DNA from: Somniosus microcephalus | Lineage: Eukaryota | Assembly (NCBI GenBank): GCA_052327205.1 | Contig: CM126202.1 | Location: forward strand, 400,086,001-400,150,000 | Direction of reading: 5' to 3' | DNA: 64,000 nucleotides | Part shown: one piece after another, positions 8,883-11,800 of the stretch | Layout of the letters: the number at the start of each line of letters is the position of its first letter | Position numbering within the stretch: position 1 is the stretch's first letter | Position numbers and translations under genes: made by a program | The notes under the pieces: generated by a model | The model's database searches: none | What the model was told of the DNA's origin: nothing | Seen by the model: the letters and a program-made list of their open reading frames with translations, nothing else

Positions 8883-11800
8883 GTAAGTGTTGTTGTTACT
8901 AATTGGACCATATTGTCAAGATAAACTTTCACACATCATTCATGATAGCAATCCATTACCCTGACTGGTAGATACATTGACTGAATAGCAACCAAGAAAA
9001 ATAATCAGCTGTATACCTTAGCACCAGAGATGACCGGAGCATTCTGACTGAACAAGTGTAGTAAGAAAGTAAGACTCCCATGACTAAGTAAAGACACTTC
9101 CTGAAAAGGATTGGCTGAAATAGTCTGACTTAGTGCAGTACTCTGGAGACAGATGTCAGCATCTTTCACCACATGCACCCCTCACACAGACAGTCAACAT
9201 TAATGGGAAGAAAGGCTGCATTAGCAATGCCCGAAATCACCATTCAAGATCCCAAATTTTGAGTTATACCTTTGTTTCTTCAGTGCTGGTTTGGTCTTGA
9301 GAAATGAACCGATGTACCAGATTCGCTCAGTTAATAAGGTGGCTTCTAGCAGTTGAATTTCTTTCTGATGTGGTTTAGTCCTGGATTTAAAGTGGTTATC
9401 ACCCATACTTCAAATTGTCATTTTAATATATGTGTATATAGATATATATATCTCTATATATACATATAAATATAACCTTTTGGAGAGTTAAAAGCCACCT
9501 TATGCAAAGCCAGTGAGGGGCAAAGAATGGGAGAAGGGGACCTCGTCCAGAGTGTCTCAGCCTATCATTCTGAGTCCCGCGCGCTTGCAAAGTGGAGTGT
9601 CTGCGCAGCGTAGCTGTCCATTTGACTTTGTGTATGTGTGCTTATGTGGGGGGGGGTGGTGGGGGGGGAAGAGGGAGGATGTACAGGGGGATGAAAGATC
9701 ATTGGGTAAAGAGTGCCTCAGCCCACAGGCCGTTGAATGGAGAGCTAACTTTCAGTGCATTCCACTGCGGCTTCAATCTGTATAAAGTGAGACTGCGCTT
9801 GCTCCTGGATGCTGCCTTCTTTATTTCAGCGGTGGAAGGCGATAGTTAGATGTTTTGTTCGATGAAGTATAAAATGAGATTTCATTTAAAGTTCTGATCG
9901 GTACATTTAAAAGACAAAACCAGCAGATTTGCAGTGTTGTTGGATTCTAAATTAGAACTAGCTCTTATATATGAAGGCCCTTTCTTCCTTGAATTTGAGG
10001 CTGCCTGGTACATAAAGGGGTCTGAGAATAATCCACCCAGACTCTCGTGCCTGGGTGTGTTTCCAATTTGGATAGGCAAAATTTATTTACAACCTCTCCA
10101 AACGGATAGGCGTAAACAAACTTTTTAAATTTACAAAATCATTTTTGAGTTGGGTGACTAGAAGCTTTCAGAGGGGACCACCGACTTTTATCTTGTTTCA
10201 CAAAGTTGGTGCCCTAATATGTCATTCGGATGCAGTTGTACATTGCAGCGCTTCGATTGCATGAACTGAAGCTAAACACATTGACTACATTTGAATATAA
10301 ATGTGAAATTGTATCTATTTTTCTTTCAGAAGATTGCATTTTAGAACAAATCCAGGAATATGTTGTTGGACTCTTTACTAACTATTTTGTCTTTCTTATT
10401 TGTCTTTTTCGTTTTCATGATTGATATTATACATAGAAGGTTTCAGGCGGGTGAAAGCTCTCCCCTGTAGGTGCCTCGCTGACCGGAGCTCGAGGCCAGG
10501 ATCTAGGGGTGACACCGTCTGCTCTTCCCGTCATCGACTACCCTGAAAATGAGATGAAATAATGGTAACGGGTTTGTAGCACTGCCACAAACAATTTGCC
10601 TCCATGCCTGAGTTCTTCTGTCTCGTGGCTTCCAAAAAAGTGTCTAAATAAATAAGTATTTATATTTACTTTTTAAAAATGGGAAAAACTGTAATTTGGA
10701 AGAAAAATTGTTCAACTTGATACATACATGTTTTTAAAGTAGTAGCCACTGTCTTAAGAGAAAACTAGTTTTAAAAGTAAAATTGGCAATAGCTCTACAA
10801 AGTACCAGTAAAGCTTCTAACTACTGATTTTGTTAATTTCTTTCCTCTTTGTTTGGTTTGCAGCATTCTGCTCTACTGATTATGCGCTGTGAGCCTGCAG
10901 TAACGCATAGGCTGCGCGGCGATGCGCCTGCGTGCGCCAGCGTTATTCATTAGATGACTGGCTGAGCATCTACCTTGGTTAGTTCTGAATGAGATGCCCA
11001 AGTGGTCCCCGGTGCCAGTTAATCCTGACTGGCATCAAAAGAACAATTGCTGCAGCATGGCCTTGCACAGCTGCTGCAATGTAGTGGAACACTTTTTTTT
11101 AATTTTCTACTTCTGTGAATTCTAGCTCAAGTTTTTTTAATCTTATTGATTGAAATAGTGATTTTTAGTTTTAATATTTGGCTTTAATGTTGATTTATTT
11201 CTTTTTGGGTACAGTGAAATTGGCATTGTGTAGTCCGTTCACAGCCTGGGCAAGTTAGCACCTGTATCTCTAGTGATTCCTTTGTTGCTGTGCCTGAGAT
11301 ACGAAGTGCTGCGGAGTACCTGTGGTAAAATCTCAGCTAGCTATCTACTACTCTGCAATTTTGCATCTGCGCATGCGGTGCGCTGTGCTGCGATTTCTTT
11401 TTTTAATTTTTTTTTTTCAAATCTGCGCCTGCGAACTGCTGGTGCCGCCACTGCAACATGTTGCAGAGCCGCGCATTGGCAATGGCGCATTGGCAATAGC
11501 GCTTTGCGTTACAGGGACCTTTATCCTCGTTCAGCACTGTCATTTGAGGTTGTGTGCTCTGCAACAGATTCTTAGATAGTAAAAAACCCTTGTTTTAAGA
11601 AACTCACGGGCAGTTGTTAATGTGTGCGATCAGAACCTTTTAAAATCCTTGGTATACTGAATAGTACTTTCTGTGAAACCTAAGCTGGTGAAGTCACTAA
11701 TAAATTTGTGAAGAAATAGGTTAATATCTGCTAATAAAACTGCTGCATAAACTCATTGGGTACAAAAATGCTGAAAGTGGGCAGGTTCTACAATTGATTT

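Follow-up and report, generated by a model that had tools for sequence, protein, structure and literature searches.

Intron 4 of OGT carries, downstream of its known decoy/poison exon, a second, strong-looking acceptor that is conserved with its branch-like motif, pyrimidine tract, AG and the following ~60 nt, and that is predicted to fold in two mutually exclusive ways. The reading that we prefer, and to which we would give about an even chance, is that this structured and normally silent acceptor forms an accessory part of the known OGT silencer and likely helps to hold intron 4 unspliced. It builds on four directly established observations: the position of the acceptor in the intron, its conservation, the loss of the adjacent donor in a relative, and the capacity of its sequence, in two species, to pair into either fold.

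Placement of the known decoy exon in OGT intron 4

The window, i.e. the whole 64-kb stretch of DNA that was analysed, carries the vertebrate OGT gene, with the frame at 6966-7268 resembling human OGT nearly residue for residue. The segment under study, 10864-10977, sits in the long (3235-nt) intron 4, the known detained intron. Since 10760-11100 has a single match in the 6.4-billion-base genome, an origin from a paralog or a repeat was rejected. Frames at 14972-15289, 18637-18975, 20553-21692 and 22847-23506, also within OGT introns, resemble remains of LINE- and Penelope-type retroelements.

In human, intron 4 is detained and harbors a 143-153 nt decoy/poison exon with two acceptors and two donors (PMC6097662, PMC12017769, PMC7261177). 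Feedback on cellular O-GlcNAc acts mainly through its retention, and the intron is already an antisense target (PMC7373989, PMC12864184, PMC13676730). The original prediction had proposed 10864-10977 as the decoy exon and suggested alignment to the mapped human decoy as a check; it was right about the gene, the intron and the kind of biology, intron 4 indeed having a decoy/poison exon, but it picked the wrong stretch. The morpholino directed at the human decoy donors (Parra 2020, PMC7373989) matches 10562-10578 over 17 nt with 0 mismatches, a match that is unique in the 64-kb window at ≤3 mismatches, and the Park 2017 silencer primer, from the human acceptor region, matches at 10423 in 21/25 positions. 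Together, these two matches place the decoy ortholog at 10437/10440-10564/10571, with acceptors TAG/AAG/ at 10437/10440, donors ATG/gt at 10564 and CGG/gt at 10571, and, in each of the four possible forms, a TGA stop 4-5 codons in. Position 10864 follows the first decoy donor by 299 nt, and identity of 10864-10977 with the mapped human decoy is thereby ruled out, as the decoy lies ~300 nt upstream. The decoy donor motif GGTAACGGG recurs as a 9-nt copy at 12283 in intron 5, probably by chance, and the comparison contig L002, described below, also has a second copy of GGTAACGGG elsewhere.

Conservation of the decoy from fish to mammals has already been published (PMC7373989), and a region overlapping the silencer has been reported as far as lamprey (PMC5588854). 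The OGT intronic splicing silencer was defined as human intron nt 1771-2297 and excised with PspXI (PMC5588854). Its 5′ edge corresponds to 10489, while the primer at its 3′ edge yielded no match in the window or in L002. With the human decoy donor at intron nt 1853 and a spacing of 272 nt in L002, the second acceptor would correspond to approximately human nt 2125, and thus likely falls inside the silencer, a placement made by spacing and not by alignment of the human sequence itself.

Table 1. Positions of the OGT intron 4 features discussed in the text
Feature	Position in window	Strand	Remarks
OGT exon 4	8814..8882	+	69 nt
OGT intron 4	8883..12117	+	3235 nt; ortholog of human detained intron
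Known decoy/poison exon ortholog	10437/10440..10564/10571	+	human morpholino and silencer-primer matches; 125-135 nt (human 143-153)
CTCGAG site, 5′ edge of human silencer (PspXI cut)	10489..10494	+	silencer = intron nt 1771-2297
Branch-point-like TTCTAAC	10815..10821	+	13-nt exact match (10810-10822) in L002
Pyrimidine tract and CAG, strong-looking second acceptor	10837..10863	+	conserved with L002; no X11 substitution among entries listed, 10773-10864
Predicted local hairpin over acceptor AG	10855..10895 (10855-10864 with 10886-10895)	+	10/10 pairs in both species
Candidate exon of the original prediction	10864..10977	+	conserved over the first ~60 nt, but not over the last ~30 nt or at the donor
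5′ arm, predicted long-range helix	10889..10903	+	shares 10889-10895 with hairpin
In-frame TAG of candidate exon	10951..10953	+	chance-level feature
Weak donor TTG/gttagt	10975..10983	+	+2 T reads A in X11
3′ arm, predicted long-range helix	11985..11999	+	in conserved block 11974-12020, outside mapped silencer
Likely true branch motif of intron 4	12022..12028	+	CACTAAT here, TACTAAC in L002
OGT exon 5	12118..12234	+	acceptor AAG/GCT

A conserved second acceptor

The motifs named in the original prediction are present exactly as described: TTCTAAC at 10815, the tract with the CAG ending at 10863, and TTG/gttagt at 10977/10978. Its description of the acceptor as strong held up well, with 20/24 pyrimidines, the best value among the 5 acceptors compared, and with conservation. 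A tract this rich precedes only 15 of the 1958 plus-strand YAG sites, and the combination of tract, AG-free zone and branch motif was found at 3/1958 plus-strand and 0/2291 minus-strand YAG sites. It is the acceptor half, and not the donor or the stop, that exceeds chance.

Conservation was assessed against L002, a metagenome contig with the decoy pattern. It matches the human morpholino in 25/25 and the upstream human guide in 20/20 positions; we treated it as a non-human, mammal-like ortholog because the downstream human guide and the retained-intron primers match only in 13-14/20 positions, which was counted as no match, and because its intron 4 measures 2962 nt versus ~3270 in human. The interval 10833-10925 is up to 27/30 identical to L002, on par with the known decoy. 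The similarity covers the branch motif, the tract, the AG and the next ~60 nt, and ends at ~10930, before the donor; around 10977/10978 two alignments with L002 disagree, and the donor region is unalignable. Two more intron blocks, 11499-11554 and 11899-11931, are conserved with L002, and their L002 counterparts are predicted to pair together.

Judging by its motif, 12022-12028 is likely the branch point of intron 4. It lies ~90 nt upstream of exon 5, with a long pyrimidine stretch in between (12022-12117), and the true exon 5 acceptor is AAG in both the window species and L002.

Two mutually exclusive predicted folds

The second acceptor is predicted to take part in a local hairpin over its AG and in a long-range helix with a partner segment 1.1 kb away, just before the likely true branch motif, which follows the 3′ arm by 25 nt. 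Because both folds use the same seven bases, 10889-10895, they are mutually exclusive. In the columns shared by the two species the helix has 14/14 pairs in both, at -23.6 kcal/mol, and none of the column shuffles reached it (0/200 with MAFFT blocks, 0/150 with BLAST blocks). Among the ungapped stems of intron 4 it ranks first of 94 in the window and fourth of 65 in L002, and it was recovered when each species was folded alone, with a mean pair probability of 0.58 in the window and 0.81 in L002. Single-species shuffles contained a stem at least as strong in 2/25 cases for the window and 8/25 for L002, and by that measure the helix is not exceptional.

Base 10893 is G here and T in L002, and its partners in both folds, 11995 in the helix and 10857 in the hairpin, change along with it, so that the pairs are kept. 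Covariation in the helix amounts to one two-sided and one one-sided change between two sequences only; overall, there is one two-sided change per fold in two full sequences, and the folds were chosen as being intact in both. When 92-nt segments were folded locally, the AG was paired at 0.96-1.0 both in the window species and in L002. The hairpin alone, at -13.4, is borderline, lying near the 5% shuffle tail (-13.5, -12.8), and the fold of 10800-11600, without the 3′ arm, has a z of -1.9. A search of Rfam gave no match at the element and one chance-level match elsewhere in intron 4 (E 0.63).

Four shared stems of ≤ -13 kcal/mol are found in intron 4, versus a shuffle mean of 0.05, and the whole intron may, on these predictions, be a conserved folded RNA. 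Two further stems shared with L002 lie in its 5′ half (9336-9345 with 9492-9501, and 9591-9600 with 9757-9766). We do not claim a nested helix of 10951-10966 with 11332-11347, which appears in shorter folds and is missing from the longer fold and from the shared-stem tests. In one of the relatives' contigs considered below (X11), the change at 10957 would mend the single mismatch of this nested helix, and small deletions occur at 11345-11348, in its 3′ side; L002 has a 17-bp helix at an equal offset from its own acceptor.

Intron 4 in RNA and alternative readings of the element

Four of the 23 listed runs (X22, X23, X8 and X11), none of the 23 being recorded as RNA, were mapped onto 10250-12750, an interval that leaves out exon 4. 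Run X22 contributed none of its 16.7 million reads to this interval. Run X23, which carries the same species label and consists of raw stranded reads (31% of the run read), yielded 79 reads, with the first mate nearly all on the minus strand; they cover most of intron 4, with none in intron 5 past 12265. Their depth at the element is 1-5 and no joints are listed, the known decoy included, which is too shallow for a junction test. Exon 5 depth in X23 is no gauge of amount, since reads of conserved exons may be lost in the mapping. Read starts of X23 form small piles at 11609 and 11630 (5 and 7 molecules), where the intron is best covered, possibly through library bias. Runs X8 and X11 are contigs from other organisms whose RNA origin is only a guess. 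In each, a single contig passes through intron 4 and reaches exon 5, at a depth of 7.2 in X8 and 82.8 in X11, and another, deeper contig of exon 5 (189.5 in X8, 298.5 in X11) extends to the coding letters of the next OGT residues, a pattern that fits selective retention of intron 4. Coverage of intron 4 without intron 5 was seen, at low depth, in X23 and X8, and nearly so in X11. These observations suggest that intron 4 is selectively retained in the window species and in two relatives, contig depth being a poor gauge of the amount.

The same contigs bear on the possibility that 10864 is a genuine but rarely used alternative 3′ splice site, spliced from exon 4 or from the decoy donors 10564/10571, with the RNA then running unspliced into exon 5. 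Such use, which requires no donor, would give a partly retained, stop-containing RNA with the folds as a secondary matter, and would be compatible with the silent-acceptor reading; in its favor, the site surpasses acceptors in use by its branch motif, tract and AG, all three of them conserved. The intron contigs of X8 and X11, however, run unbroken through 10864, with no joint or loose end listed, bearing in mind that contigs drop rare forms. Among the OGT rows listed in the supplements of Govindan 2025 (PMC12017769), the decoy list gives the known decoy alone, and the first two OGT rows listed in each of its alternative-3′-site tables are other events. On balance we consider such rare use of this site unlikely, if by no means far-fetched.

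The conserved block could also be a cluster of protein-binding sites or an enhancer at the DNA level, in which case its resemblance to an acceptor and its complementarity would be by-products. It is rich in CG and GC steps, and a review attributes enhancer-like activity to an ultraconserved DNA element of this intron, uc.475, which may overlap our block. The enhancer or binding-site reading would leave unexplained the strand-correct order of branch motif, tract and AG, as well as the presence, 1.1 kb away, of a conserved complementary segment that shares a two-sided change with the block, and we regard it as quite unlikely.

The view taken in the original prediction, that 10864-10977 is a cassette exon whose inclusion leads to nonsense-mediated decay, would now make it a second decoy/poison exon next to the known one. 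All of its motifs are present and its acceptor is conserved, L002 has a weak TGG/gtgact donor 123 nt past its acceptor together with an in-frame stop, and SF3B1 intron 4, with six cryptic exons, illustrates that several decoys per intron are possible (PMC6097662). The translation offered for the stretch was also correct: the 114 nt after exon 4 read HSALLIMRCEPAVTHRLRGDAPACASVIH-stop in the proper frame, ending in the TAG at 10951-10953. The weak donor and the in-frame stop upstream of a later junction had been cited as marks of decoy design, but both are at chance level and were dropped as evidence for an exon. A stop is expected in 84% of such stretches (2633/3121 114-nt stretches of intron 4), and an equally good donor occurs 50-250 nt downstream of 24/33 sites with such a tract (8/15 on the plus strand, 16/18 on the minus strand); the quality of the L002 donor is likewise at chance level.

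Furthermore, the T of the donor GT at position 10979 reads A in X11, in one contig at depth 83 and far from its ends, while in X8 the T is kept. Among the substitutions listed (40 of 163 rows), those of X11 number at least 1/352 (0.3%) over the known decoy at 10318-10669, none in the 92 positions 10773-10864 that hold the branch motif, tract and AG, at least 3/85 (3.5%) at 10865-10949, and at least 11/59 (18.6%), the highest value, at 10950-11008, around the donor. Of the features that go with the decoy class, a conserved 3′ splice site is found at 10863/10864, but a conserved 5′ splice site is not, with GT changed to GA in X11 and the region unalignable in L002; non-conservation of the splice sites, which had been named as grounds for abandoning the exon, is thus seen at the donor and not at the acceptor. 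As drawn, 10864-10977 is probably not normally a cassette exon, and a second decoy at this place appears very doubtful, the more so as the stretch is not the mapped decoy. Finally, a chance pseudo-exon in neutral intron sequence would account for the chance-level donor and stop, but it is refuted for the acceptor half by the 27/30 identity to L002 over the acceptor block, and is scarcely credible for the element as a whole.

A possible role in intron 4 detention

Under the reading that we prefer, a silent acceptor accessory to the silencer, the two predicted folds would correspond to two states. In the hairpin state, if it forms in cells, the AG would be paired and unused, and the tract, being mostly unpaired, could hold 3′-splice-site factors unproductively. 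The changes at 10865 and 10881 among the X8 and X11 rows listed fall within the hairpin loop. In the helix state, pairing of 10889-10903 with 11985-11999 would loop out 1.1 kb, free the AG and bring the acceptor beside the real branch region, where it could compete with the AAG acceptor of exon 5. The balance between hairpin and helix would then tune retention jointly with the known decoy.

Two published observations fit this model without proving it. By itself, the silencer represses splicing but is unresponsive to O-GlcNAc drugs, which indicates that further cis sequences are required (PMC5588854), and ~20% retention persists after the known decoy is blocked (PMC7373989). Since most of the retention is lost once the known decoy donors are blocked or mutated (PMC6097662, PMC7373989), the second acceptor can be at most accessory. 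A bolder version would have the acceptor and its partner act as a two-state RNA switch across jawed vertebrates, constituting the missing cis element of the O-GlcNAc response and the source of decoy-resistant retention; it strikes us as speculative and on the whole unlikely. Were it true, OGT could be raised or lowered through a second antisense target. The two exclusive folds on a conserved second acceptor define the exact bases to mutate and rescue, and should the second-acceptor model fail, an ordinary ortholog of a known element remains, with its decoy correctly placed.

Relation to known systems

The decoy/silencer system of intron 4 is already known, and within the literature searched we did not find the second acceptor with its two folds described. 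The open literature searched yielded no description of either the acceptor or the helix, although the helix may be listed in the full catalogue of paired regions, which was out of reach. The accessible portions of PMC12894984, PMC12864184 and PMC13676730 mention no decoy other than the known one, and OGT is absent from the searched supplement text of PMC11632617 and PMC8052449, which probably does not include the full PCCR list and does not extend to the supplements of PMC10573301.

The end of the intron is of interest in connection with the mOGT start region. The distance from the 3′ arm to exon 5 is 118 nt in L002 and 133 nt in the window, and mammals show 90-100% conservation over the final 150 nt of the intron (Trapannone 2016, PMC4901358). 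The mOGT reading frame is broken in most species, and protein coding therefore does not explain the conservation of the intron end (PMC4901358). The predicted pairing could explain part of it. Presumably, the 3′ arm coincides with the mOGT start itself.

The human OGT decoy exon shares the gene and the intron with our element, and its ortholog in the window has an early stop, two acceptors separated by 3 nt and two donors separated by 7 nt; the element at 10864, in contrast, lies 300 nt downstream and has one strong acceptor and no conserved donor. The OGT silencer probably includes its location, with the 5′ edge at 10489 and the acceptor expected near human nt 2125 by the L002 spacing; in the accessible text of that study (PMC5588854) the silencer is not dissected and no second acceptor or RNA fold is named, and the partner arm of the helix lies outside it. 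Closest in kind are the BRD2/BRD3 poison-exon pairings (PMC10789245) and those of the PCCR catalogue (PMC8052449), in which conserved complementary intron segments lie beside a cryptic splice site. The predicted OGT helix has the two conserved complementary arms in orthologous places that characterize such long-range pairings; unlike the published pairings, as far as these sources describe them, the OGT element is without a conserved donor, and its long-range helix would compete with a hairpin over its own AG.
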